A DNA stretch of 36,947 bases, from IMG/VR virus record IMGVR_UViG_2728369181_000010. One strand, 5' to 3'. Shown here one piece after another: positions 4,748 through 31,816 of this stretch (position 1 is the first letter of the stretch; each line of letters starts with the position of its first letter). The position numbers and the translations under genes were made by a program. Below the pieces are notes generated by a model. It did not search any database, was not told the origin of the DNA, and saw nothing but the letters and a program-made list of their open reading frames with translations. The DNA is from a virus (taxonomy: Duplodnaviria; Heunggongvirae; Uroviricota; Caudoviricetes).

Positions 4748-7700
4748 GCGTCGTATCCCCCCTGATCGCTGTAGTTACTCCTGGCTTTTGCCTTCAGCCT
4801 GCGTTCACGTTCATCAAGCTGGCGGGCCACCTCCCGCGCAATATCCTGCGCACTTTGTCCTGGCTGCGTCTGAATGATGATCTGCGTCGGTGCCTCAAGC
4901 CGTTGAACGGGCGGCACAGTGGCGGCAGGACTCACCATCGCTTCGCCGCCTTTCGCGGGAAGTGCCAAAGGATGTAACGGTGGAAGCTCTGCAGGTGCGG
5001 CAGCAACGCCCATCATTCCGGCAACAACGGCAGCCAGTGCAGCGGTATTTCTCCGGCTGGTCACATTTGCCGGGCCGTTAACAATTTCCGGCCNNNNNNN
5101 NNNNNNNNNNNNNNNNNNNNNNNNNNNNNNNNNNNNNNNNNNNNNNNNTTCACCGACGATGCCAAACTGCCCGCGCGGGATATAGCCGCCGCTGTCATAC
5201 ATCCCCGCAAAGCCATATCCCCATGACGGAAAACCACCCGATGGCATCATCACTTTACCGTCAGCATTCACCGTCGCAGGTTGCTGACGCGTCACGCTTT
5301 CCGGCAGTTTCGCCTTTGCAGCCTCTTTACTGACAATGCCGAGTTTATCCAGCAACCAGGAAACGCCGGATTTCAGGGAGTCCAGCGGATGCATGACCAT
5401 ATTCAGCCCTTCCGCCAGAGCCTCCCCGAATCGTCGCCCCATTGCCGCTGCGCTCTGCAGTTCGGCAGAGGTCGACTTAACGGGCGTCAGCAGATCAGTA
5501 AACCAGCCCCACAACGCCTGCACTTTGTCGCCAATCCACTGAAACACAGGCTTAAGTGGTTCGAATGCTGCACTGATGGGACCTGCCGCCGCTTTGAATC
5601 CTTCCACCACACCAGCGAGAAATGCGGTGATGGGTTGCCAGTATTTCCAGACAACCAGCGCCACGCCCGCCAGTGCAGTAACCACAAGACCTATCGGACT
5701 GAGCAGAGCACCTAACAGACCAGATATGGCATACAGGGCAACGCGCAGCATCGCCAGCGGACCGGATGCCAGTACTCGCAGCACCGCGCCTGCGGCAGCC
5801 AGTCCACCTCGTAGTGCTGCCAGTGGATTCATAAACATCACAGCAACAGCACGTAAACCGGATAATCCAGACCGCAACAGTGCAACCGGCACACCTGCTA
5901 CAGTTTTCAGGACATTCCCCGTCAGTGATGCCGTGCGGCGCAAAGACGACAACGGCGCAGTAAGTAAACCCGCTGCGTTGCCCGATGAAGCAAGCCCGCG
6001 TCGCAGCAGTGCCAGTGGAGCGCCAGCTAACCAGGACAACGCGCTGCTGGTTCGTGTTACTGCTGCCGTAACGGAAGGTAACGTTTTGATACCCAGCACA
6101 GAGAATCCCAGACGGATCACTGCCAGCGGCCCCAGCACTGCAGCCAGCGCCACCGCTAAGGTGCCGAGGCTTACGGTAACCGCAGCCACAACAGCCGCTA
6201 CTTTCATCAGTGTGCCTGTCAGTTCTGGGTTAGCTTCCACCCAGCGGCGCAACGCCCCCGTGATGCTTTTCACCGTGTACAGAATATCCATCAGCGGCTG
6301 GCGCAGCGTTTCGCCCAGGCTGCTGAAGGTGTTCTGCGCTCCGGTTTTGACCAGCAACCACTGAGCAGAAAGTGAGTCTTTGTTGATGTCGGATTCTTTC
6401 TGCATGGAACCGAGCGCATCATTGCCCGCTGTCAGTTTTAGCTGGCGCTGCAGTTCCGGCAGGTTGTTTGCCAGTTTCGCCGCGTCATCACCAAACTCTT
6501 TACCAAACAACATGGTCATGGCAGACAGACGCTTGTCCTGCGGCAGTGCGTTCACCTTCTCCAGCACACGCTGGATAGTTCCCATCGCATCCTTCGTCAT
6601 CTGCTTTTCAATCACTTCAGGATTGAGTTTCAGCAGATTCATCCCTTCAAAGAAACTCTTGCTTTGCATGGTGGCAATGGACAATTCACGCACCATCGCG
6701 TTTGCTGCACTGGCTGCAACCTCCGGCGCAGCGCCCAGTGTCAGAAAGGTGGAACCCAGTGCCGCCGCTTTACGATAATCCAGACGGTCAGCCACACCGC
6801 CCAGACGTTGCATCACATCAATGATGTCCGCCCCTTTCGACATGGCGTTATCATCCAGATAGTTCAGCGCATCGCCGAGCTGTTCAATATTGCGGGTAGG
6901 TATTTTGTAGAGCTGGGCGATTTTCCCCAGACTTTCTGACAGTTCATCCGCTGGCAGCTCAAAGGCTGTTGCCGCCTTTGCTGCCGTACTGGCGAAGGCC
7001 AGCAGGTCACGTTTCTGGTCTTCCCAGCTGTCGTCAGGGTTTGCGACGTTCATGCGCGCACCACCTTCAACCAGTGCAGCGAAGTCCACCGCACCGTTTT
7101 CCATCGGCAACTGTTCGCTGGCAGCCTTGATGGCATCCTGCATTTCATAAAAACGTGCAGTGCGGTTGCCATTATCGTCACGCAGACCATTGACCTGCTT
7201 TGCCACACCTTTCATGGCATCTTCCATGCTGGTATAGCTTTTTACTGCCGCCATCACTGGCGCACCCATTGCCAGCCCTGCAGCCGTGGTAGTGGCTCCG
7301 GCTCCTGCAATACGGTCGCGCACCTCCAGCGAACGGGCATAACTGGCACGCGCCGCATTCATCCTGCGCTGAGCTTCACCCAGTCGCTTCAGCCGCGCCT
7401 CCTGTTTCGACAATTCCTGGTTATAACGTGATGTTTCACGGGCTAAACGGGCAGTTGCTCCCGCATCATCTTTCGCAGAAATTCCCGCCCGGTACAGTTC
7501 TGCACGCACAAGCGCCGTTTGCTTCTGCAAATATTTTTGTTGTTCTTCCAGGCGTTGGACTGCCAGCGTTTGCCGACCTAAAGCCACAAGGTGCCGTTGT
7601 GATGGTTGTTCCATCGCCTCCAGCTCAGAGCTAAGCAAATTAGCCTTCTGTCTGGCATAGTTCAGCCTGTCGCCTAACTTCTTGTTATCGGCCTGCAGCT

Positions 7701-10195: not shown

Positions 10196-10768
10196 TCAGG
10201 GGGATTCATTGCTCTTATTTGCCGGAAATTTTCTATAAATTGTGGAAACACCCACATCAAAAATCAGTGCAATACGCTGTCTTGATTCTCCGGCCTCGAG
10301 TAAACGTCCAATCTGTGCCCACTGTTCGGTGGTCAACTTAGGACGGCGTCCACCTACTCTGCCTTTAGCACGAGCTGCAGCCAGCCCCGCCCTGGTACGT
10401 TCAACTATCAGTTCGCGTTCCATTTCAGCCAGGGCACCCATGACATGAAAAAAGAAACGGCCCATTGGGGTACTGGTATCAATACTGTCAGTCAGGCTTC
10501 GGAAATTCACACCACGCTGGCGCAACTCTTCTATCAGCGTAACAAGATGCCGCATACTGCGCCCCAACCTGTCCAGCTTCCAGACAACCAGCGTGTCTCC
10601 TGCCAATAGTGTCCTGAGCAGTTTTTTAAGCCCCGGTCTGTCGGACTTAGTGCCACTGATTTTGTCCTCAAAAATCCGCTCACATCCCGCGCAGTTCAGC
10701 GCATTACGTTGCAAATCGGGGTTCTGGTCATTTGTTGACACGCGTACATAGCCAATAAGCATGATCAT
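10196..10768 (-). CDS. Serine-recombinase DNA invertase (Hin/Gin/Cin/Pin family)
   Basis: 190-aa ORF; N-terminus MLIGYVRVSTNDQNPDLQ with catalytic Ser motif and C-terminal HTH, closely resembling Gin/Hin; adjacent to the invertible tail-fibre segment. Confidence 0.9.
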   Translation of the reverse strand: MIMLIGYVRVSTNDQNPDLQRNALNCAGCERIFEDKISGTKSDRPGLKKLLRTLLAGDTLVVWKLDRLGRSMRHLVTLIEELRQRGVNFRSLTDSIDTSTPMGRFFFHVMGALAEMERELIVERTRAGLAAARAKGRVGGRRPKLTTEQWAQIGRLLEAGESRQRIALIFDVGVSTIYRKFPANKSNESP

Positions 10769-10789
10769 CTCCCTGAATAAAAATAGGGG

Positions 10790-11338
10790 ATGATGCCAGT
10801 TAGCCGTAATCGCTGCATTTTCTTAAACGTTGGTTTGGGAGAAGGTTCGGCATTACCCGTTGGGGTGCCTGTTCCGTGGCCTTCAGCCACTCCGCCAACA
10901 GGCTGGCTGAAATGCAATGGTGCGGCTTTTTCTGCTGAAGAATACCCGGAACTGGCAAAGGCTTACCCGACTAATAAATTGCCTGATTTACGCGGTGAAT
11001 TTATTCGTGGCTGGGATGACGGTCGCGGGATTGATTCTGGTCGTACTTTGCTTAATTGGCAGCCACACACAATTTTGGACCATGCACACTATATGGAATT
11101 ATGGACAGGGGACGGACTCGCCGCAGGAAGTGCACGGGAAGGAGTAAATCCAGGAATACTGGCTACATACGGTGACGGGGGAATAGTTAAAACAGACGAA
11201 CCCGGTCTTAAGGTGCCTTCCTCACTACGAGCTATTAGCTCCCGTAGTGTAAAACGTTTTGGTGAAATTAGTGGAAAGGTAGGTACAGAAACTCGTCCTC
11301 GTAACATCGCTTTTAATTATATTGTGAGGGCCGCATGA
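10790..11338 (+). other. Alternative tail-fibre C-terminal cassette (promoterless; expressed only after inversion)
   Basis: ORF without its own plausible N-terminus; begins at the crossover site (encodes ...GLGEG...); tail-fibre tip-like sequence; followed by a cognate assembly chaperone. Confidence 0.7.
10830..10844. repeat. Inversion crossover site (left inverted repeat) of tail-fibre segment
   Basis: ttggtttgggagaag; exact inverted copy at 12798-12812; flanking sequence resembles hix/gix sites. Confidence 0.7.
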
Positions 11339-11940
11339 TGAATAAAGTTATCTTAAATAACGAACTCATTGCCATAAAAGCGGGAGACATTATCATTTAT
11401 AATTATGATGGTGAAACGCGGGAATATATTTCTACATCAACTGAATATCTCGCTGTCGGCGTCGGTATACCGGCATGTTCCTGTTTGGATGCACCAGGTA
11501 CACATAAAGCTGGTTATGCAATCTGTCGCTCTGTAGATTTAAATTCATGGGAATATGTGCCAGACCATCGCGGTGAAGTTGTCTATAGTACCGAAACGGG
11601 AGATACCAAAGAAATCACAGTTCCGGGTGATTACCCTGAAAATACAACCACTATCGCCCCATTAACGCCATATGATAAATGGGATGGTGAGAAATGGGTG
11701 ACCGATACTGAGGCACAGCATAGCGCCGCAGTAGACGCGGCAGAAGCACAGCGTCAGTCACTGATTGATGCTGCAATGGCTTCCATCAGTCTGATTCAGC
11801 TGAAATTACAGGCCGGACGGAAGTTGATGCAGGCAGAAACAACCCGGCTTAACGCTGTGCTGGATTACATTGACGCGGTGACGGCAACAAATACCAGTAC
11901 AGCGCCGGATGTCATCTGGCCTGAACTGCCGGAGGCGTAG
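11335..11940 (+). CDS. Tail-fibre assembly chaperone (cognate of alternative fibre tip)
   Basis: 201-aa ORF; C-terminus ...DVIWPELPEA typical of tail-fibre assembly proteins; convergent 29-bp overlap with the other chaperone gene. Confidence 0.8.
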   Translation: MMNKVILNNELIAIKAGDIIIYNYDGETREYISTSTEYLAVGVGIPACSCLDAPGTHKAGYAICRSVDLNSWEYVPDHRGEVVYSTETGDTKEITVPGDYPENTTTIAPLTPYDKWDGEKWVTDTEAQHSAAVDAAEAQRQSLIDAAMASISLIQLKLQAGRKLMQAETTRLNAVLDYIDAVTATNTSTAPDVIWPELPEA

Positions 11941-12357: not shown

Positions 12358-13911
12358 TTACCGTCCAATGATTAACGCTGAGACGCTGGTATCTGAAGGA
12401 AAGGCTGCATTCAGTGGTTTGTCGACTTTGAACACAATCGTATTATTCCCCCTGACAGCGGCAAAAGAACAAACCGCAGTCGCGTATGAACCTGTAATAT
12501 TACTGGATACACCACCATAAGCTGTTGTTGATACCAGAGGGATAACGCCCAGTACCTTATTAGGAAATACAAAGGGCAATGTGGCTGTGGCAATATAAGA
12601 CTTATTAGAACCTGTGATGGCATAAGCATTATCAGTCATTCCATTCATCGCCACTGGGCCGCTTATACTTACAGTAACCATCTGTATGATTAGCCCGTCA
12701 GGTTGACGAATCACAAAATTTCCATTGCCACCAGTAACCGTCCAGAAAGACATATCAGGGATTTGGTTTTCCCCGTTGCCCACATTCCGTTTTGCCGCTT
12801 CTCCCAAACCAAGGTATATGAGAAGACCAGCTACATCCTTTCCACTCAAATTAGTCAGCGTATTGTCCAGCGGTTGTTTACCTGCCAGCGCATTAAGCAT
12901 TGTCGTGGCAAAGTTCGGGTCATTCCCCAGCGCTGCCGCCAGTTCGTTCAGTGTATCCAGTGCCGCAGGTGCAGAACCCACCATTGCCGCAATTGCCGAT
13001 TTCACAAAAGCCGTGGTGGCAATCTGTGTATTGTTGACCGACTGTGCCGCAGTAGGTGCGGTTGGCGTTCCGATGAGTGCCGGACTCGACAGCGGCGCTT
13101 TCAGTGCCAGCGCATTGTTAATGGTGGTACTGAATTTCGGATCATTGTTAATGGCTGCGGCTATTTCTTTCAGCGTGTCCAGCGTGGCTGGCGCACCATT
13201 AATAAGAGCCGTCAGAGCCGCCTGAACAAACGNNNNNNNNNNNNNNNNNNNNNNNNNNNNNNNNNNNNNNNNNNNNNNNNNNNNGGTGGTCGCAATCTGC
13301 GTGGTGTTATTCCCTGCGGCTGGCGTTGGCGCTTTGGGTGTCCCGGTAAACGTCGGACTTTCTTTGAGTGCATACTGTGAATGCGGGTCCGGTGCGGCAA
13401 GATGTTTTGCCATCTGATCATCCGCGTACACCTTCAGCTCCAGTGCCTTGTCATCCACATACTTGCGGGTTGCCAGCACTACGGCAGGGTCGATTTTCAG
13501 GGTGATATTGTCCGTGCTGCTGGTAATCAGCACCATGCGCACGGTCTGAGTGCGCCCGCTACCTTCAGCCAGTTGCGGCTTATAGCTTTCCGGGCAGTTG
13601 CCCACGGCAATCAATGCCCCGGACTCATCAAACAAGCCCACTTCACGTATCCACCAACCGCCCTCGTTTTCAGGGATCACCTGTTCGGCAATAATCTGGC
13701 TGCTGTTCTGCGGGTCGATATAGAGCATATTCAGCGCAGCCCGGCGTTTCTCATTTACCAGTGCAGTCTGCTTTGAGTCTGGCGTTGGCAATACTCCGCC
13801 GCCATCGCCGACCGCCATATGGGTAATTTTTAGCGGCACACCGAGCGCGGCGGCGCTGGCAAGTTTCGCCGCGCCAATATCCGTCAGCAGGGTATAAAAT
13901 TTTGTGCTCAT
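12358..13911 (-). CDS. H: Tail fibre protein H (constant N-terminal part plus invertible C-terminal tip)
   Basis: 517-aa ORF, ATG at 13911; Ala/Thr-rich repeats typical of fibre shafts; crossover site at 12798-12812 lies in-frame (YLGLGEAAK); interrupted by N-run 13233-13284. Confidence 0.85.
   Translation of the reverse strand: MSTKFYTLLTDIGAAKLASAAALGVPLKITHMAVGDGGGVLPTPDSKQTALVNEKRRAALNMLYIDPQNSSQIIAEQVIPENEGGWWIREVGLFDESGALIAVGNCPESYKPQLAEGSGRTQTVRMVLITSSTDNITLKIDPAVVLATRKYVDDKALELKVYADDQMAKHLAAPDPHSQYALKESPTFTGTPKAPTPAAGNNTTQIATTXXXXXXXXXXXXXXXXXXFVQAALTALINGAPATLDTLKEIAAAINNDPKFSTTINNALALKAPLSSPALIGTPTAPTAAQSVNNTQIATTAFVKSAIAAMVGSAPAALDTLNELAAALGNDPNFATTMLNALAGKQPLDNTLTNLSGKDVAGLLIYLGLGEAAKRNVGNGENQIPDMSFWTVTGGNGNFVIRQPDGLIIQMVTVSISGPVAMNGMTDNAYAITGSNKSYIATATLPFVFPNKVLGVIPLVSTTAYGGVSSNITGSYATAVCSFAAVRGNNTIVFKVDKPLNAAFPSDTSVSALIIGR
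12798..12812. repeat. Inversion crossover site (right inverted repeat) inside gene H
   Basis: cttctcccaaaccaa = reverse complement of 10830-10844. Confidence 0.7.
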
Positions 13912-16438: not shown

Positions 16439-17245
16439 ATGAGTGTTATGAATCCAATAAGTTCTAATATATTTAATGCTGAATTTTTAAACACCCCGGC
16501 AGCGGCACTTGCCGCATGGATTTCCATTATTGGAGCTGTTATAACTTTGGTGACGATAGTTATAAGAGCACTATTCAAATATAGAAAATCTCATGATGTA
16601 ATTTTGAAAAAATCAGGAATACCTGCGTTTATATTAAATTTCTTTCTTATAAAAATATCATTAAAAAGGCTGCCTACTATCACATGGGCTGAAAAATCAT
16701 TCACGGTTCTATTTTCGCTTCTTTTTTTGTGTGCAATTTATCTTTTTGGTCCAGTTTTCATCCAAGCCATTAGAACCCCACCAAATAGCACATTGCTTTA
16801 TTGGATAAAGTCCGGTGAATCATTTTATATGTCAAAAAAAATGGCGACTGCAGCTACAATATTAACCACTCCTGATTGGGAAATATCAAAGGATGATTGC
16901 GAAGAGTCATCCTCTGCCAGTACAGAGAAGTACAAATCATTAACTATCGAACATAAAGAAATTCTTTGTAAACTACTAACCACTGATGAAGGGAATGCTT
17001 ACATTGATGAAGAAGTCAAGAATTTCGTTAAAGACAAATTTTTTATCTATTCCTTTGCCCCAACAACTATATTTATTCTATTATGGATTTCTTTGGGTTT
17101 TATACTGACCATTCACTATTCTAAAAAAGTTAGGAAATATATTCTAACTGAACAAAAAAATGCAATTCATTGGGCATATGGTGAATTCAAGACAGAAGGA
17201 ATCTATTCAATATATCAAGAGTTAGAACATAAGACTCGCCATTAA
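16439..17245 (+). CDS. Hypothetical three-TM membrane protein (cargo in the V-S moron slot)
   Basis: 268-aa ORF, ATG at 16439 with AGGTGG 4 nt upstream; strongly AT-rich versus flanking phage genes; three hydrophobic segments and an acidic soluble region; opposite strand to all neighbouring tail genes. Confidence 0.6.
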   Translation: MSVMNPISSNIFNAEFLNTPAAALAAWISIIGAVITLVTIVIRALFKYRKSHDVILKKSGIPAFILNFFLIKISLKRLPTITWAEKSFTVLFSLLFLCAIYLFGPVFIQAIRTPPNSTLLYWIKSGESFYMSKKMATAATILTTPDWEISKDDCEESSSASTEKYKSLTIEHKEILCKLLTTDEGNAYIDEEVKNFVKDKFFIYSFAPTTIFILLWISLGFILTIHYSKKVRKYILTEQKNAIHWAYGEFKTEGIYSIYQELEHKTRH

Positions 17246-18560: not shown

Positions 18561-18621
18561 AACCAGCANNNNNNNNNNNNNNNNNNNNNNNNNNNNNNNN
18601 NNNNNNNNNNNNNNNNNCGGT

Positions 18622-23180: not shown

Positions 23181-24903
23181 ATGAACACCACACTGACACC
23201 CGCAGATCTCGATCCCCGTCGGCAGGCCATGCTGCTGTACTTTCAGGGATACCGCGTAGCCCGCATTGCTGAAATGCTGGGCGAGAAAGTTGCAACCGTT
23301 CACAGCTGGAAAAAACGCGACAAGTGGGGTGACTATGGGCCGCTGGATCAGATGCAGCTCACCACCGCCGCACGCTACTGCCAGCTCATTATGAAGGAGC
23401 ACAAAGAAGGGAAAGATTTCAAAGAGATTGACCTGCTGGCGCGCCAGTCTGAGCGCCACGCGCGGATCGGCAAGTTTAACAATGGCGGCAACGAAGCCGA
23501 CTTAAACCCTAACGTCGCCAACCGCAATAAAGGCCCACGCCGTCAGCCGGAAAAGAATGTTTTCACCGATGAGCAGATTGAGAAGCTGGAAGAAATCTTC
23601 CATTCCTCCATGTTCAACTACCAGCGCCACTGGTGGGAAGCCGGAAAAACCAACCGCATCCGCAACCTGCTGAAGTCTCGCCAGATCGGCGCGACATTTT
23701 ACTTTGCCCGTGAAGCCCTGATTGACGCCCTGCAGACCGGGCGTAACCAGATTTTCCTTTCTGCCAGCAAGGCTCAGGCCCACGTCTTTAAGCAGTACAT
23801 CATCGACTTCGCCAAAGAAGTGGAGGTGGAGCTGAAAGGCGATCCGATGGTGCTTCCTAACGGGGCCACGCTTTACTTCCTCGGCACCAATGCCCGCACG
23901 GCCCAGAGTTATCACGGCAACCTGTATCTGGATGAATATTTCTGGATACCGAAATTTCAGGAGCTACGCAAAGTGGCTTCCGGTATGGCTATTCACAAGA
24001 AATGGCGGCAGACCTATTTTTCCACACCATCCAGTCTGACCCACAGTGCTTATCCGTTCTGGTCCGGTGCACTGTTCAACCGTGGGCGCAACAAAGCTGA
24101 CAAGGTGGACATCGACCTGTCCCACAGCAATCTGGCCCCCGGCCTGCTGTGCGCAGACGGGCAATACCGCCAGATAGTCACCGTGGAAGATGCGGTGCGC
24201 GGCGGCTGTAACCTGTTCGACCTCGACCAGTTGCGCATGGAGTACAGCCCGGACGAATACCAGAACCTGCTGATGTGTGAGTTCGTGGACGATCTCGCGT
24301 CCGTGTTCCCGCTCAGCGAGCTGCAGGCGTGCATGGTGGACAGCTGGGAAGTCTGGACCGACTTTCATGCACTGGCGCTGCGCCCGTTTGGCTGGCGCGA
24401 AGTGTGGATCGGTTATGACCCGGCAAAAGGTACGCAGAACGGCGACAGTGCCGGATGCGTGGTGGTGGCTCCGCCAGCCGTGCCGGGGGGTAAGTTNNNN
24501 NNNNNNNNNNNNNNNNNNNNNNNNNNNNNNNNNNNNNNNNNNNNNNNNNNNNNNNNNNNNNNNNNNNNNNNNNNNNNNNNNNNNNNNNAACGTGAAAGCG
24601 TTCTTTCCTGCCGTCCGGGAGTTTGTCTATAACCCCAATGTTAAAAATGCTCTGGTACTCAAGGCCTACGACATTATCAGCCACCGCCGTCTGGAGTTTG
24701 ACGCCGGGCACACCGACATTGCGCAGTCATTCATGGCAATCCGTCGCGCCACCACCGCCAGCGGCAACCGCCCGACCTATGAAGCCAGCCGCAGCGAAGA
24801 AGCCAGCCATGCCGATCTGGCCTGGGCAACAATGCACGCACTGTTTAACGAACCACTGCAGGGCGAGTCCGCCAATACCAGTAATATTGTGGAGATTTTT
24901 TGA
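23181..24903 (+). CDS. P: Terminase large (ATPase) subunit P
   Basis: ATG at 23181; divergent from O as in P2; reading frame interrupted by N-run 24497-24588 and resumes in the ORF ending with TGA at 24901-24903. Confidence 0.85.
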
Positions 24904-25967: not shown

Positions 25968-27653
25968 TCACTCGGGAATACCCTTCCTTTCAGGGTTAAC
26001 CAACCAGTGCTTTATATTCCCAATAAAATCCCAAACATCACCTTCAGATGGCTTCACATATGATTCATCATTAGGATCATCCCCCATCTTCTCGAAAATA
26101 CTTGTTAACCAAGTATTCTTTCCTCGACCTATTTCAAGATTTTGCAACCAAGACTCGATCTCGCCCGTTGGAACGACAAAAACCCCATAATCTGAAAGGG
26201 ATTTAAAAAACTCAGAGCAGGCGGTTTTATCTGAACCCGATAACAAGGAGAGGCCCCCATCTGTCTTCATATTTTTATTCGTATTTTTGAAGGCTTGAAA
26301 AAGCTTTTGTCTTTCCAAACCTAAAGTTTCATGCTTCATTTCTGGAAAAAAAGCTCCAAGCATTGGTTTTTTCCATACAACTCCTCCCTCCTTCAATATA
26401 TCGATATCTACCACTCCAACGCAGGGAATACCTAGCTCACGAAGGGGTTTTACTATATCCCAAACAGTTTGTTTGTTTTGAGCATTCAAAAACAGGCATC
26501 CCTCAATACCCCGAGGATCTCCAGCAGCCAATAAGCGCTCATTAATCTCTTGATAAAATGCCCTATCTGCATCCGCTTCAGTAACGACAACGTAATTATA
26601 AAACAATGCGTTTAGCACACCAATAGATCTTAATAACGGATTTCTCATGAGCGGCGTCAATTGTTCCTTTGTTAGTAATCTAGACGTACCAGATTTACCA
26701 TCAAAAGTAAGCCTAACTATATTCAATGGCACTTTACCTTGAACACAACCCATTAAAAAATTAGCGCTATGCGTTGAAATAAACACATTTTTATTACTAT
26801 GAGCACTAATCCTAGATATTTCCTTTCCTAACTTTGAGCATAAGGATGGATGTAAAAAAGCTTCCGGCTCATCAATTAGAGTCACCTTTGGTGAGCCAAC
26901 TATCAGCGAAATCATCATCCCAACAAAAGCATTAACACCATCGCTAGCCTCTGTAATCAATGACGCTTTTGAATGAAAAAGCACTGACTTTTCATCCCAA
27001 CCTCTTTCTTCTTGTTCAGTCTCAGGAGCGCGCTCAGAAAGACGAATTCTAAGATAACCTATATTTGTTGGATCAATAACAAGATACTTCCCGAAAGCAT
27101 CAAAAACGATATCTCTTAGCTCCATCCTTGCTTTATTATTTTTAAAAAGAAATGAAAGGTTATTCGTAGGTTCTCCTTGTAAATCGGATGAACCTTGACT
27201 TGAAGTTAAGGAAAGTCGACTTCTACCATCCAACCTTAGAGTCAGCAACGAGTAATATTGATATAGATGCTCCCGATTTAATTCATTGGGTTGCTGGAAT
27301 TCTCTTAACATTCCATCCAAATACACTAGAATCCTAGATATTCCTTCACCACGGAGGTTTAGCCTAGATAAAACAACATGCCCCGCATGATTTTCATCCT
27401 GGTTTGGCTCAACTTGTAAAGATTCAATTTCCTTTTTTGCTTCATCCTCAGAAAGTGGTTTGATTAATATCTGTTTTATTACTTCTCCCTGCGCTGCATT
27501 TCGGGTTGTCAGTTGATTTTCTATATCGATTAAAGCTCTAGATTTACCACTATTATTCGGCCCCACAAAAATTGTCAATGGAGTCAAGTCAACCGATAAT
27601 GAAGATTTAGATGTTGGATTACTTCCTGAATTAAAAATCAATTTATCTAACAT
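25968..27653 (-). CDS. OLD-family ABC-ATPase / TOPRIM nuclease (candidate single-gene anti-phage defence)
   Basis: 561 aa from ATG at 27653 with AAGGAGGT upstream; Walker A GPNNSGKS, Walker B VTLIDEPEAFLHP, H-loop FISTHS, then TOPRIM-like VVVTEADAD and VGVVDIDIL (E...DxD); AT-rich. Confidence 0.75.
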   Translation of the reverse strand: MLDKLIFNSGSNPTSKSSLSVDLTPLTIFVGPNNSGKSRALIDIENQLTTRNAAQGEVIKQILIKPLSEDEAKKEIESLQVEPNQDENHAGHVVLSRLNLRGEGISRILVYLDGMLREFQQPNELNREHLYQYYSLLTLRLDGRSRLSLTSSQGSSDLQGEPTNNLSFLFKNNKARMELRDIVFDAFGKYLVIDPTNIGYLRIRLSERAPETEQEERGWDEKSVLFHSKASLITEASDGVNAFVGMMISLIVGSPKVTLIDEPEAFLHPSLCSKLGKEISRISAHSNKNVFISTHSANFLMGCVQGKVPLNIVRLTFDGKSGTSRLLTKEQLTPLMRNPLLRSIGVLNALFYNYVVVTEADADRAFYQEINERLLAAGDPRGIEGCLFLNAQNKQTVWDIVKPLRELGIPCVGVVDIDILKEGGVVWKKPMLGAFFPEMKHETLGLERQKLFQAFKNTNKNMKTDGGLSLLSGSDKTACSEFFKSLSDYGVFVVPTGEIESWLQNLEIGRGKNTWLTSIFEKMGDDPNDESYVKPSEGDVWDFIGNIKHWLVNPERKGIPE

Positions 27654-27804
27654 ATAACCTCCTTTCACATAAGATATCCCTAAGTTTTGAACTAATGGGA
27701 CTCAATAATTTGCATTATTCTTATAGCATTTTACTCAACAAAGTGAAGTTAATTGTACTTCATTCTTATACCTCCCAGCGCGCGCTCGTATCCCCGCCAC
27801 GCCT

Positions 27805-27823
27805 GCCCGCTTTATGTAGTGGT
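27805..27823 (-). other. Candidate cos cohesive-end sequence
   Basis: Minus-strand GGCGTGGCGGGGATACGAG; first 13 nt match the remembered 186/P2 cohesive-end sequence (GGCG(T/A)GGCGGGGAAAGCA-); lies in the intergenic gap between the two cargo genes. Confidence 0.4.
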
Positions 27824-27844
27824 TTTCATGCACCTGCATGATCT

Positions 27845-27872
27845 ACGCAAAAGCCCGCCAGAACTGGCGGGC
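27845..27872 (-). terminator. Rho-independent terminator downstream of lipoprotein gene
   Basis: Minus-strand hairpin gcccgcca-N4-tggcgggc followed by TTTTG. Confidence 0.6.
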
Positions 27873-27976
27873 CTTAACACAAAAGATCCTCAAACGATCA
27901 TGCGATCTCATGCAGCATAGACATGCGCGCTTATGCAGAATGTGCAAAATCGTAACATACTCAGTAAGCGTGAAAC

Positions 27977-28654
27977 CTAGAACGTGACAGCCTTGTCAAA
28001 GCCAGAAATAATTGTATAAGAAATAGACGAGTTATCAGCCTTGTTCACTTTGAACTTGGCACCTTTGTAAGCGATAACGTCACTTCCCTTAGAATCTACA
28101 GAAAAATCTGTTGTAAATGCTGCACGAGCCATATCGTTTGCAAATTCACGATAGGTGAACTTCATTACACCGCCTGCATTTCCATTGTATTCGATAGTCT
28201 TAACCAATGAGTTACTAACTCGACACAGCCCATCAGGAACACGTTTGATAGAAATTTCTGATGCAGTATAAGAAGTACCATTTGGCGGTGATATCTCATT
28301 TTTTGCAGCATCGTAACTAACATAATCAACATAGTTACCGATTTGCCCATAGAGATTTTTTAACGCAACAGCTTGAGGGTTATGATAATTGCGGTAAATT
28401 CCATTCCCCTCACTGCAATATGTACCAGCAGCGATAGAAGACAATGCACCATTAGCCGCACCAAGTTCTAGTACGTCCGTTTTAAATCCAGTAGCAGATG
28501 TGATAATGGGATCGCCCATGTAGGCGGTAGCACTTTGCCCAATAGCAGGCTTCACCACTTCAATAGCAGTGATATTTCGGTTAGAAGCATGTGGCACGCA
28601 ACCAGTTAGGATTACAGCAAGAGATATTGGTAACGCTACATTATTAATTTTCAT
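27977..28654 (-). CDS. Hypothetical lipoprotein (cargo; possible superinfection-exclusion factor)
   Basis: 225 aa from ATG at 28654; signal peptide MKINNVALPISLAVILTG|C with lipobox; AT-rich; own terminator. Confidence 0.65.
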   Translation of the reverse strand: MKINNVALPISLAVILTGCVPHASNRNITAIEVVKPAIGQSATAYMGDPIITSATGFKTDVLELGAANGALSSIAAGTYCSEGNGIYRNYHNPQAVALKNLYGQIGNYVDYVSYDAAKNEISPPNGTSYTASEISIKRVPDGLCRVSNSLVKTIEYNGNAGGVMKFTYREFANDMARAAFTTDFSVDSKGSDVIAYKGAKFKVNKADNSSISYTIISGFDKAVTF

Positions 28655-28767
28655 TTTTAGCCTATTATTCTTTTCTTGACAAAAAACAAGGCGATATCTG
28701 ATTGACATCGCCTCTCACTCATATGTAACCCTTTTTGATTAGTAAAAACAAGCGTCTATTGACAAAA

Positions 28768-29001
28768 TCAATGCAGCCAGCTGTCGTCTTCCCACACCTT
28801 CTGCATAATTTTCATCACTTGTTTTCTTTCTTCGTCCAGTTGCAGTCCGGTCAGTTCCACACCGTTAGAGCTACCTTTGCGGATACGAATTACCGTTTTG
28901 GGATACAGGGGGCGCAGATTGCGGTAAAGCTCGGATTCAAGGGCGTCCAGGGTAGACTGGCTAATCTTCTGCTCTTTATCGATCATTATTTCAATGCGCA
29001 T
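28768..29001 (-). CDS. DinI-family protein
   Basis: 77 aa from ATG at 29001 with AGGTGA upstream; MRIEIMIDK...LDALESEL... resembles E. coli DinI. Confidence 0.8.
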   Translation of the reverse strand: MRIEIMIDKEQKISQSTLDALESELYRNLRPLYPKTVIRIRKGSSNGVELTGLQLDEERKQVMKIMQKVWEDDSWLH

Positions 29002-29011
29002 AAAAGTCACC

Positions 29012-29200
29012 TCAGCTGATGACATCCATTGAGCGGTTGTATTCGTGGCTTCTGATTTTTGCCATGAGTTCATCTGTCAGTTCAGAAACCCACTGCAAAG
29101 CCAGCCCCTTCTCTTCATCACTACACTCACTAGCCGCTACAAGCTTAAGAAAAAAATCAATGCGCTGGAGCTTCAAAGACTCCAAAAAATAGTCCTGCAT
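29012..29200 (-). CDS. Small hypothetical protein, possible Tum-like antirepressor N-terminal module
   Basis: 62 aa from ATG at 29200 with AGGAGG upstream; LexA box 40 bp upstream; function inferred from position only. Confidence 0.4.
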   Translation of the reverse strand: MQDYFLESLKLQRIDFFLKLVAASECSDEEKGLALQWVSELTDELMAKIRSHEYNRSMDVIS

Positions 29201-29242
29201 CTTTCCTCCTATAACACCAAAGCAATACTGTATACATAACCA

Positions 29243-29258
29243 CTGTTTATATTCACAG
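29243..29258. promoter_or_regulatory. LexA operator (SOS box)
   Basis: CTGT-ttatattc-ACAG, perfect CTGT-N8-ACAG palindrome, directly upstream of the small-ORF/DinI-like operon. Confidence 0.75.
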
Positions 29259-29401
29259 TATATAATAATCTTACTGATGTAAAACGTTTTTTTACNNNNN
29301 NNNNNNNNNNNNNNNNNNNNNNNNNNNNNNNNNNNNNNNNNNNNGTTCATCAGCCTGATATGCCTGGTATTATTAAGAGCACGAATTGTTAACCCGCGTA
29401 A

Positions 29402-31816
29402 TTAATACAGATCCCGCCACTTATCATCTTCCTGCAAGCGCTGGTTCCGATAGAAGATACGCAGGCCTGCTCCTGACGGAATACTGCCACCGCGAAGGAG
29501 TAAATCGACCTCTTTCTCGCTGCCATCAAATCCTCTGGACTTCAGTTCATAGACAAGCTGCTGTCGCTGATGGTCTGTAATTCGCTGTTTGTAGTCTTTA
29601 CGCCGTTTCGGTTTCACCAGGCGTAATCTTGCTGTCAGTTCCTGGCGCTCTTTTTTGCTCATACTGTGCAGGTAATCGTGCAATTCCTTGTCATTCATAC
29701 GGATGATATCCGTTCTGGTATCCCCATCAGCTGATTTGTCTTTCCCTTGTTGGTGCAAATTTTCAGCAAGGGGACAGTTATTGCCACGAGTCCAAGGGGC
29801 GCAAGCGCCCTGGTCGGCTACCGCCTCCTGAACGTCAACGGCCTTACGAACCATTTTCCACTTCACTGCATGAGTGCAGATCTTGCCCTCTGCAATGGGT
29901 GACCAGATGCCATAAATACGAATGCCGTGATCGCCATAGGCGGTCGGCTCTTCGTTGATTTCATAAGCGGTTCTGATAAGGTGATATTTACGGGGAACCA
30001 GTACGCCGCCCTGCTTCATGATGTAGGTGGCAAAACAACCAGCATCAGCAGCAGCCAGGATGGCATCAAGGCGCGGGTCATCCAGTATCGGCGCACCTGC
30101 TTTTTTGTCACCCTGTTGCCTTGCCGCCTGACCAGCCAGCAAGCGAAGTTCACGGTAAGCCTGACGTCCCGGAATACCAAAGAAGCGGAACTGCTGAACA
30201 CGATGCAGAGACGCCCAGGCATTAACGTATTCGGCGTTATCACGCAGGGATTTACCCGTTTCCTTGCTGATCTCGCCAGCCAGACCACGCCCGTCAATGT
30301 TCTTACTGATGTATTTCGCGATGTAGCTTGTCGGTGTTCCTTTGCGCGGGTTAATCAGCTCAGACTTAAAGCGTGGCCCCGTGTTGTTGCCCAGCTCCTC
30401 GCGGTCTACACGGATGGCAAACTTACGCAGTAATGCAGTGATGGCGCGGCGGTCTTTTTTACGCATGAAGCACATGAGATGCCAGTGCACAGTACCGTCA
30501 TGGTGCGGCTCAGCCACCCGCACGCCATACCAGCGCAACCCGGTTTTGTGCATTGCCTTACGAAATGCAGCAAACATGCCGACCATATAATCGCTGCTTT
30601 GTCTTACCGTCGCATTTGTCCAGGTCGGGTTGGGTCTGCCGTTGTTGAGCGTGGAATGGAAACGTGACGGACAGGTGATAGTGTAGAAAACGGCGCAGTC
30701 ACCGCGCATTTCCGCGATAAGCTCCAGACCTTTAACACAGGCCATCATCTCATTGCGGCGATGCGCAGGGTTGCTGCTGCTGGCGTTTACCACATCCTCC
30801 ATGTCCAGCGTGTCGCCGTCTTCGTTCACCAGTTCATGAGAACGGAAAAACTCCAGCGACTTACGGCGCTGCTCACGTTTATGCATCACGGCTTCATAGC
30901 TGACATAGGGAGATGCTTTTTTGCTGACCAGGCAGACAGCACGCAACTGCTCTTCCCGCCATTCGCAACGCATCTTCCATAATTTCCGATACCACCAGTC
31001 GGCGCACAACATACGCGCCAGCGAACCCGGAATGAGTTCATAGGGCACGGGTTTACGGCGGTTTCTTTTCCGACGGAGTTGCTCAAACGCAGGTGGGATG
31101 ACATCCAGACGCAGGGTTTCCGCCGCCACCTTTTCCCATGTCTTGCGGATTTCTTCTGGCTTAACGTCATCGGTGGCATACAAATCGCCACAAGCTGCAT
31201 CAAGGCACATGCTCATATGCGCAGCTACCAGGGTGGACAGGCGTTTCACCTGATCCTGACTCATTTCAGGCAGGATCAGCAGGCCCTCCAGCCCTTGATG
31301 GCTTGCCATAAAACGGAAAGAAGCAGACAGCTGACTGTCACGTACACAATCCAGTCGCTCCAGACATGGCTTAATCGTCTCACGCAAATAGCGGGAATAA
31401 GCCTTTGGCCTGCCCAGGCTGCTGAAGTATTCGATACGTTGCATCAGCGGCTTGCTAATATGGGTGGGCTGGGCGCTGACGTCCGCCAGAATGACCATGT
31501 CCGGGTTAAAACGCTGCTGTTCATGCGCTAGCTTTGCCCGGCTAATGAGCTTATCCTGCTCCATTTCGCGCTGGACAGGATCACGAGATTCATTAAAGAA
31601 ATAACGCTCCCAGACCTGCTCACTCAGTGCATCGCGGCGCAGCTGTTCCTGCTCATTATCGGCAGCGTACAGAGTGATCAGGTTTAAAAGTGCAGACTCC
31701 GGAGCAACTTCCGCCGGGTCCAGATAAGGGTTAATGGCCTTTTTCGGGCCGTTCCATGAAAATGCTGCAGCGGCCTCGTTAAAGCCGCTAGAGTTGCTCA
31801 TATCGTCATGACTCAT
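29402..31816 (-). CDS. A: Replication initiation protein A (rolling-circle nickase)
   Basis: 804-aa ORF, ATG at 31816; P2/186 gpA-like size and position. Confidence 0.85.

Follow-up and report, generated by a model that had tools for sequence, protein, structure and literature searches.

A lipoprotein gene beside cos in a 186/Fels-2-type P2-like prophage as a candidate for a new family of phage-excluding envelope proteins

Between the replication gene and the packaging site of a P2-like prophage lies a gene for a 225-residue lipoprotein, and its position raises the question of what such a protein does for the element that carries it, and whether it does so alone. The sequence-only reading, an earlier description of the same DNA, had taken it for a self-contained cargo gene with a plausible superinfection-exclusion role. 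Here we examine the gene, its product, its surroundings and its relatives.

The window, i.e., the whole 36,947-nucleotide stretch of DNA that was analysed, is a prophage of the 186/Fels-2 type of P2-like phages. The host genes ybjM and ybjL form its left end; rightward in the window follow the tail and head module, then 186-type CI and CII, and then the integrase. The features needed for the argument are listed in minus-strand order.

29402–31816, minus strand: replication gene gpA, the first in minus-strand order
29243–29258, no strand assigned: LexA box CTGT-N8-ACAG (TACTGTGAATATAAACAGTG), directly upstream of the putative operon
29012–29200, minus strand: 62-aa ORF (phrog_698 match, 4e-37), first ORF of the putative SOS operon
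28768–29001, minus strand: DinI-like gene of the TumB type (Pfam DinI, 1e-22)
28678–28714, minus strand: hairpin with U-run in the interval between dinI and the lipoprotein start (scanner match; −16.6 kcal/mol, z = −3.8)
27927–28769, no strand assigned: exchangeable cassette comprising the hairpin, the lipoprotein gene and a 50-nt tail (blastn breakpoints against the relatives L002 and L003)
28598–28654, minus strand: predicted lipoprotein signal peptide, residues 1–19, with the lipobox L-T-G-C (read from the sequence)
27977–28654, minus strand: lipoprotein coding sequence, 225 aa and stop codon
27849–27875, minus strand: strong intrinsic terminator at the putative operon end (fold −23.6 kcal/mol, z = −5.3)
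27785–27803, minus strand: cos core GGCGTGGCGGGGATACGAG, found by motif search and including the cos-like GGCGTGGCGGGG at 27792–27803
25968–27668, minus strand: OLD-like ABC-ATPase/TOPRIM nuclease gene in the slot between cos and Q

The portal gene Q comes next after the OLD-like gene, on the plus strand. The window contains five runs of N (49–92 bases, at 5094–5148, 13233–13284, 18569–18617, 24497–24588, and 29296–29344), the last of which falls in the interval from gpA to the LexA box, where it may mask the −35 region of the SOS promoter. Two other parts of the window deserve mention. A Hin/Cin-type serine invertase gene (10196–10768, minus strand) adjoins an ORF with a tail-collar domain and a tail-fibre assembly gene on the opposite strand, and the region 10196–11940 looks like an invertible tail-fibre switch of host range. 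A DUF6216 gene at 16439–17245, on the strand opposite to the late genes around it, occupies the lowest-GC stretch of the window (35%) and looks like a further cargo gene with no assigned function.

The lipoprotein gene and its product

The full open reading frame extends over 27977–28708 on the minus strand (732 bp, a 243-aa frame), and the start codon at 28654 within it gives the 225-aa product that begins MKINNVALPISLAVILTGC. This start is also used by RefSeq for the identical protein of E. coli HS (WP_000700647), and all 22 homologues compared (35–88% identity) align from it; the alternative ATG at 28708 falls within a hairpin stem. The ORF and the start previously proposed were therefore retained. 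The location of the gene on low-GC DNA was also corroborated: its GC content is 40.7%, against 50.8% for the whole window, and its GC3 is 31%, against 58–60% in gpA and Q. Conservation of the ORF in related prophages was found as well. The protein is 100% identical to WP_000700647 and 99% identical to STM2726 of Fels-2, and matches of 100% and 99% occur in prophages of Klebsiella, Salmonella, and E. coli; of the 5,426 complete genomes of E. coli, 50 carry the gene. The dN/dS ratio against homologues that are 79–96% identical was 0.04–0.07, from which we conclude that the gene is not a chance ORF but is functional and under strong purifying selection.

The N-terminus of the product, MKINNVALPISLAVILTG, directly precedes Cys19 and leads into it through an LTGC lipobox (L16-T17-G18-C19), of which G18 and C19 are invariant in the 22 homologues. 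The mature protein is predicted to begin with Cys19, which would carry the lipid. As a lipobox we accepted [LVI][ASTVI][GAS]C ending a signal peptide within the first ~35 residues, and as a sign of outer-membrane sorting the absence of Asp at position +2 after the lipidated Cys (the Enterobacterales rule for the Lol pathway). Both are found here: the +2 residue is Val, i.e., there is no Lol-avoidance signal, and the product is accordingly a predicted outer-membrane lipoprotein by sequence. Across the family, 256 of 276 full-length members carry a lipobox-like motif; none of these 256 has Asp at +2, and 209 have an even number of additional cysteines, usually two. Taken together, these three properties fit a disulfide-bonded lipoprotein that is sent to the outer membrane by the Lol pathway.

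The absence of a recognisable motif, already remarked upon in the sequence-only reading, persisted in wider searches. Scans of the protein against Pfam, NCBIfam, and PADLOC gave no match, and none of the PADLOC v2 models matched it at E ≤ 0.1. The same scans of 73 and 10 family members returned a lipid-attachment-site motif alone, with Pfam LPAM_1 matched by 7 of the 73. PDB sequences, searched with a profile as well as with the protein itself, yielded signal-peptide matches and no others. The protein belongs to phrog_1353, a group of unknown function (E = 3.1e-105, residues 1–223 against positions 1–230 of the 230-position profile). An AF2 model built with the 22 homologues had a mean pLDDT of 80, with values of at least 90 for 103 of the 225 residues, and consisted of an all-beta domain behind a disordered tether of ~10 residues. 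The best-conserved residues lie in the C-terminal half (Y156, G158, Y168-R169-E170, R177, and D187). The structural check proposed earlier thus yielded a confident all-beta model but no convincing fold relative. Neither in sequence nor in fold was similarity detected to the Llp, Cor, TraT, or Bor families of outer-membrane lipoproteins or to any other known exclusion or defence protein, and a literature search by accessions and locus tags found no mention of the gene.

One feature of the databases should be mentioned. At 90% identity the exact protein has been clustered under a branched-chain amino-acid transaminase as representative. This is evidently an artefact of the clustering, and it accounts for the missing self-hit in the first homology search. 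A scan of genome contigs for the family returned one locus.

The cassette, the putative SOS operon, and the OLD-like neighbour

The exchangeable cassette begins right after the dinI stop codon and ends 50 nt beyond the lipoprotein stop codon. In the E. coli relatives L002 and L003 it is replaced by a DUF8087 gene or a gene for a 176-aa protein on the other strand, in agreement with the earlier description of the lipoprotein gene as cargo in a variable region of the prophage. The adjoining segment 27600–27926 is ~95% identical in E. coli relatives without the lipoprotein gene. The terminator at 27849–27875, which came from folding and was not picked up by a simple scanner, lies inside this shared segment, and we therefore assign it to the conserved cos-proximal backbone. 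The sequence-only reading had given the gene a rho-independent terminator of its own at 27845–27872; the hairpin and the U-run proved to be real, but they are not specific to the gene.

The cos-like sequence reported in that reading is present, within the cos core. In the P2 record, cosL comprises bases 1–19 and is next to Q. Judging from the motif, the cos core is probably the packaging cut site that divides the right-end from the left-end cargo slot. Homology to Fels-2 and E. coli HS covers 27778–29100 of the window and breaks at 27778, just left of the cos core. Since the break falls beside cos, we distinguish two independent cargo slots, one on each side. The lipoprotein gene is situated between A and Q, beside cos, at a site that varies among related prophages, and the gpA–gpQ slot of P2-like phages is an anti-phage hotspot (Rousset et al. 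2022, PMC9122126). Databases and this one hotspot survey already include the gene product as a hypothetical protein: WP_000700647 is listed as 'hypothetical' in Table S5 and is not in Table S2, which holds the systems evaluated for defence activity (PMC9122126).

When the gene is regarded as a moron in the sense of Hendrix, its base composition is deviant, its downstream terminator is shared backbone, and the sole promoter-like site overlaps the start codon. The picture of a self-contained unit with its own promoter and terminator thus seems less apt than that of a gene at the distal end of an SOS operon. The layout is LexA box, 62-aa ORF, DinI/Tum gene, terminator-like hairpin, lipoprotein gene, terminator, and cos. 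The motif CTGT-N8-ACAG has a single match within the window, just upstream of the 62-aa ORF and at the same position as the LexA site of p95 in phage 186. The DinI-like protein is 41% identical to residues 71–145, the C-terminal half, of 186 Tum (E = 3e-24). The 62-aa ORF was considered as a homologue of the Tum N-terminus and rejected, as no similarity was found. By position, the hairpin at 28678–28714 corresponds to the partial terminator t95a of 186 and the terminator at 27849–27875 to t95b. In comparison with NC_001317, therefore, all elements of the 186-type SOS operon are found in the layout: a LexA box, a Tum/DinI gene, an internal hairpin, a distal gene, and a pre-cos terminator. The LexA box and the 62-aa ORF (phrog_698), in 29012–29258, together with a DinI protein that matches the C-terminal half of Tum, appear to represent a split 186-type SOS antirepressor operon, of which the lipoprotein gene looks like the last gene.

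A sigma-70 promoter belonging to the gene itself was sought between the hairpin and the start codon, and none usable was found, so that expression is most simply explained by read-through from the SOS promoter. In Salmonella, the Fels-2 dinI copy STM2727 was up 5–15-fold after exposure to the mutagen MX, and STM2726-STM2727-STM2728 was flagged as a responding predicted operon (PMC2225428); the latter call is the sole hint of co-transcription. The hairpin belongs to the variable cassette. An 88% homologue (L040, 5860–6003) retains it with base changes and 79% homologues (L042 and L044) lack it, and the coupling of the lipoprotein gene to the SOS operon may differ between these lineages.

The gene on the other side of cos does encode an OLD-like protein, as the sequence-only reading had stated, with ABC-ATPase and OLD-TOPRIM domains (Pfam AAA_15, AAA_21, and OLD-like_TOPRIM; PADLOC Old, 1.5e-20). 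The two genes are adjacent in the window, and another prophage has a different OLD-family gene at a distance of 2.8 kb from a 57% homologue of the lipoprotein, which might point to a two-gene defence system. We consider this extremely improbable, since the co-occurrence data effectively exclude a cooperation of the two. None of the 55 lipoprotein-bearing P2-like loci in IMG/VR carries this nuclease, and the same nuclease, at ~99% identity, is found in many E. coli P2-like prophages that have other genes in the slot and no lipoprotein. This independent assortment led us to conclude that the two genes are independent modules, as had been argued before. Moreover, the terminator and cos intervene, placing the genes at opposite ends of the packaged DNA, and one product is predicted to be cytoplasmic and the other exported. 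The position of the OLD-like gene holds an AIPR gene in Fels-2 and a gene for a 463-aa protein in HS. The OLD-like gene is interrupted by ISKpn26 in L002. The old gene of P2 lies on the other side of cos from that of the window, which is between cos and Q.

A family distributed over mobile elements

In an exhaustive profile search with clustering at 50% identity, 2,434 family clusters passed a threshold of E ≤ 1e-3, and 1,256 one of E ≤ 1e-10. The family reaches environmental Geobacter, Gallionella, Desulfuromusa, and Planctomycetes. Eleven independent contexts were sampled, and ten of them are recognisable mobile elements. Besides the P2-like prophages (the window and the IMG/VR loci), homologues were found in a serine-recombinase prophage, near its terminase gene (this is the prophage with the different OLD-family gene mentioned above); in the early region of a prophage, ~5 kb from the terminase and portal genes; in an SSU5-like phage-plasmid; in a satellite-like element of Psychrobacter; and in a Geobacter integrase island with a reverse transcriptase. 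In the last (L073/L074, 11384–14821) the homologue directly follows a tyrosine integrase gene, and the island, which also has a resolvase and a pair of PRTase-CE and reverse transcriptase, looks like a retron- or DRT-type defence locus. The sole sampled context without phage or integrase genes nearby is a chromosomal island of Cronobacter turicensis next to proBA (L087, 8001–12740), where the homologue is accompanied by four tandem LprI/DUF1311-type genes and a gene for a protein with a peptidoglycan-binding domain.

In several contexts the homologue is linked to the tape-measure gene. Siphovirus prophages of Klebsiella aerogenes and Acinetobacter have an Arc/antirepressor cluster, the lipoprotein gene, one small gene, and then the tape-measure gene; the homologue is also tape-measure-linked in a Moraxella phage tail module, and in a Pantoea element it lies just upstream of the tape-measure gene. 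A targeted scan of this siphovirus branch found 197 IMG/VR contigs, 80 of which were retrieved (L093–L172). Of the 80 loci, 74 encode a tape-measure homologue downstream of the lipoprotein gene and on its strand. Among the 65 with enough flanking sequence, 60 have an ORF of 600 aa or more whose start is no further than 2.5 kb downstream, often at 70–700 bp. Homologues of this branch (L093–L172, L071, L075, L078, and L084) often come after an Arc/antirepressor cluster and before a gene for a small membrane protein. No conserved partner gene was found downstream of the homologues in five phage types: the neighbours are mutually non-homologous, although several resemble membrane or secreted proteins by sequence.

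Possible functions and the closest known systems

By analogy with genes in the same positions of other phages, we consider it quite possible, if somewhat short of an even chance, that the lipoprotein is anchored in the outer membrane, is made at induction or late in infection, and blocks the entry of incoming phages. The course that we infer is as follows. The product would be exported by Sec, lipidated at Cys19, disulfide-bonded between C80 and C144, and sorted to the outer membrane, where it would act as a stand-alone lipoprotein. As the apparent last gene of a LexA-controlled SOS operon, it would be expressed mainly on prophage induction, via read-through of the post-dinI hairpin, and in the siphovirus relatives the lipoprotein would be made together with the late tail genes. 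In the envelope, the product would interfere with infection by other incoming phages, more probably at a periplasmic, post-adsorption step, such as formation of the DNA-injection conduit, than by masking the receptor of the prophage itself.

The preference for a later step rests in part on E. coli HS, in which a P2-like prophage has the identical lipoprotein gene. DuoHS, the HS P2-like phage, still lyses capsule-less HS lysogens from without, the DuoHS virions released after mitomycin induction are trapped on capsule-less neighbour cells and lysis debris, and the receptor of this phage is the O-antigen (PMC13622650). The prophage that bears the gene is presumably DuoHS. Because lysis and trapping occur despite the identical gene, the gene has no visible blocking effect on adsorption of the phage that would carry it, suggesting that the lipoprotein does not mask its own phage's receptor. 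In addition, the spread of the family over distant phyla under strong purifying selection indicates that the target is conserved rather than receptor-specific. If the protein excludes phages at all, these considerations and the lack of similarity to Llp and Cor favour a periplasmic block after adsorption over the masking of a receptor. Of the earlier proposal, then, the superinfection-exclusion role gains indirect support from two positional analogies, the 186 orf97 slot and the HK97 gp15 slot, and none from similarity to known exclusion proteins; an Llp/Cor-like masking of the phage's own receptor has become less likely. The hotspot location and the phage-excluding lipoproteins in tail clusters of mEpimmI phages add further support by analogy. 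In a broader version, the protein would be the founding member of a very large family of outer-membrane lipoproteins borne by mobile elements. Proteobacterial myoviruses, siphoviruses, satellites, and phage-plasmids would use it, at induction or late in infection, to obstruct the tape-measure or ejection proteins through which an incoming phage passes its DNA across the periplasm, and the mechanism would be broadly conserved, fold-novel, and post-adsorption. We regard this version as rather doubtful; if true, it would account for the orf97-type slot of 186 as well as for the conserved location ahead of tape-measure genes.

Further observations speak against the exclusion reading: the gene has no convincing sigma-70 promoter, the post-dinI hairpin, which the 79% homologues lack, could end most transcripts, and one family member resides in a chromosomal island without phage genes nearby. 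Other functions must also be weighed. The protein may assist the lytic cycle, altering the envelope of the producer cell so that progeny escape without re-adsorbing to debris, as with T5 Llp, or so that lysis is tuned, with the lysogen gaining no protection from other phages. The predicted timing, from an SOS operon in P2-like phages and a late tail operon in siphoviruses, would fit, and the gene occurs in elements that need lysis for release. We nevertheless consider such a helper unlikely, because virions of the HS P2-like phage stick to capsule-less neighbours and debris in spite of the gene (PMC13622650), because the gene is dispensable, with close relatives holding other genes in the slot, and because it is also carried by an integrase island and a satellite-like element. 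Another conceivable role is that of an orphan immunity protein or inhibitor, kept on mobile elements against an attack in the periplasm, for example by lysozyme, a bacteriocin, or a peptidoglycan hydrolase or lipase that arrives by type VI secretion. A predicted periplasm-facing, disulfide-bonded lipoprotein with family-conserved polar residues (Y168, R169, E170, R177, and D187) would suit this role, the Cronobacter copy stands beside four LprI-type paralogues and a peptidoglycan-binding protein, and a conserved target would account for the breadth of the family and the purifying selection. However, 10 of the 11 contexts have no toxin gene in the vicinity, the searches showed no resemblance to known families of immunity proteins or lysozyme inhibitors, and the tight tape-measure linkage would be left unexplained, so that this role seems distinctly unlikely to us.

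Still less probable in our estimate is a lysogenic-conversion factor that, like lambda Bor or plasmid TraT, serves host fitness or virulence, for instance through serum resistance, adhesion, or a more robust envelope. The gene would be outer-membrane lipoprotein cargo in prophages of clinical lineages of Klebsiella, Salmonella, and E. coli, and the protein is similar in size to TraT. On the other hand, the absence of a Pfam match argues against membership in the Bor or TraT families, the family extends to the environmental bacteria named above, and the predicted SOS or late timing would be ill-suited to a trait needed in an uninduced lysogen. Exclusion of incoming phages therefore remains our preferred reading, and we consider the gene, on the strength of the positional analogies, a reasonable candidate for a new family of prophage envelope proteins that exclude other phages.

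Hotspots of prophages adjacent to cos are a proven source of anti-phage systems, and screens have focused on cytoplasmic ones. Should phage entry indeed be blocked, a widespread lipoprotein family with no recognisable fold match would be added to the short list of envelope-level exclusion proteins, and the orf97-type slot of SOS-inducible P2/186-like phages would gain a function. This would then be relevant to phage therapy, as the gene is on prophages of Klebsiella pneumoniae ST258/ST11/ST512, Salmonella, and E. coli. Should the protein have no such activity, the gene would be an ordinary prophage cargo gene.

The closest known counterpart in position is orf97 of phage 186, which occupies the same slot in the same layout (LexA-controlled p95-tum-t95a-orf97-t95b-cos). 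In the 186 record, t95a is annotated as 'partial termination of p95 transcript', and t95b is followed by the genome end. The orf97 gene has 732 bp and encodes 243 aa, and the long reading frame of the window is also 732 bp. The GenBank annotation of Orf97 states 'expression from plasmid blocks 186 infection'. With its hydrophobic, membrane-anchor-like N-terminal segments Orf97 appears to be envelope-anchored, but it has no classical lipobox signal. Homology between the two proteins was rejected (BLASTP E = 4.5), and 186 is absent from the tblastn matches. In the siphovirus branch, the lipoprotein homologues share the slot upstream of the tape-measure gene with the superinfection-exclusion moron gp15 of HK97, whereas the lipoprotein gene of the window is not beside a tape-measure gene. 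HK97 gp15 is a 62-aa predicted inner-membrane protein, in contrast to a lipoprotein of 200 aa, and shows no homology to it.

T5 Llp and Cor of phi80 and N15 are likewise lipoproteins, being stand-alone, phage-encoded proteins of the outer membrane that block FhuA. Llp is made during lytic growth, and both Llp and Cor are much smaller than the 225-aa lipoprotein. They are specific to one receptor and match the lipoprotein neither in sequence nor in fold, whereas the present family spans many phyla. Lpp021 and Lpp010 of the mEpimmI phages, lipobox proteins encoded in structural or tail gene clusters of temperate coliphages, exclude phages experimentally, and their exclusion follows the outer-membrane receptor that the phage uses (PMC11893012). 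The 33 phage records that tblastn matched at E ≤ 1e-5 include no mEp phage, and the mEpimmI lipoproteins are thus a different family at this sensitivity. The mechanism that would best suit the link of the siphovirus branch to tape-measure genes is that of TP-J34 Ltp, a prophage lipoprotein that blocks DNA injection after adsorption and targets the tape-measure protein (cited in PMC10883804). Ltp comes from a phage of a Gram-positive host and is not among the fold matches of the lipoprotein. New here are the apparent distal position of the lipoprotein gene in an SOS operon, the assignment of its terminator to the backbone, and a large family on mobile elements with a pre-tape-measure slot in siphoviruses.
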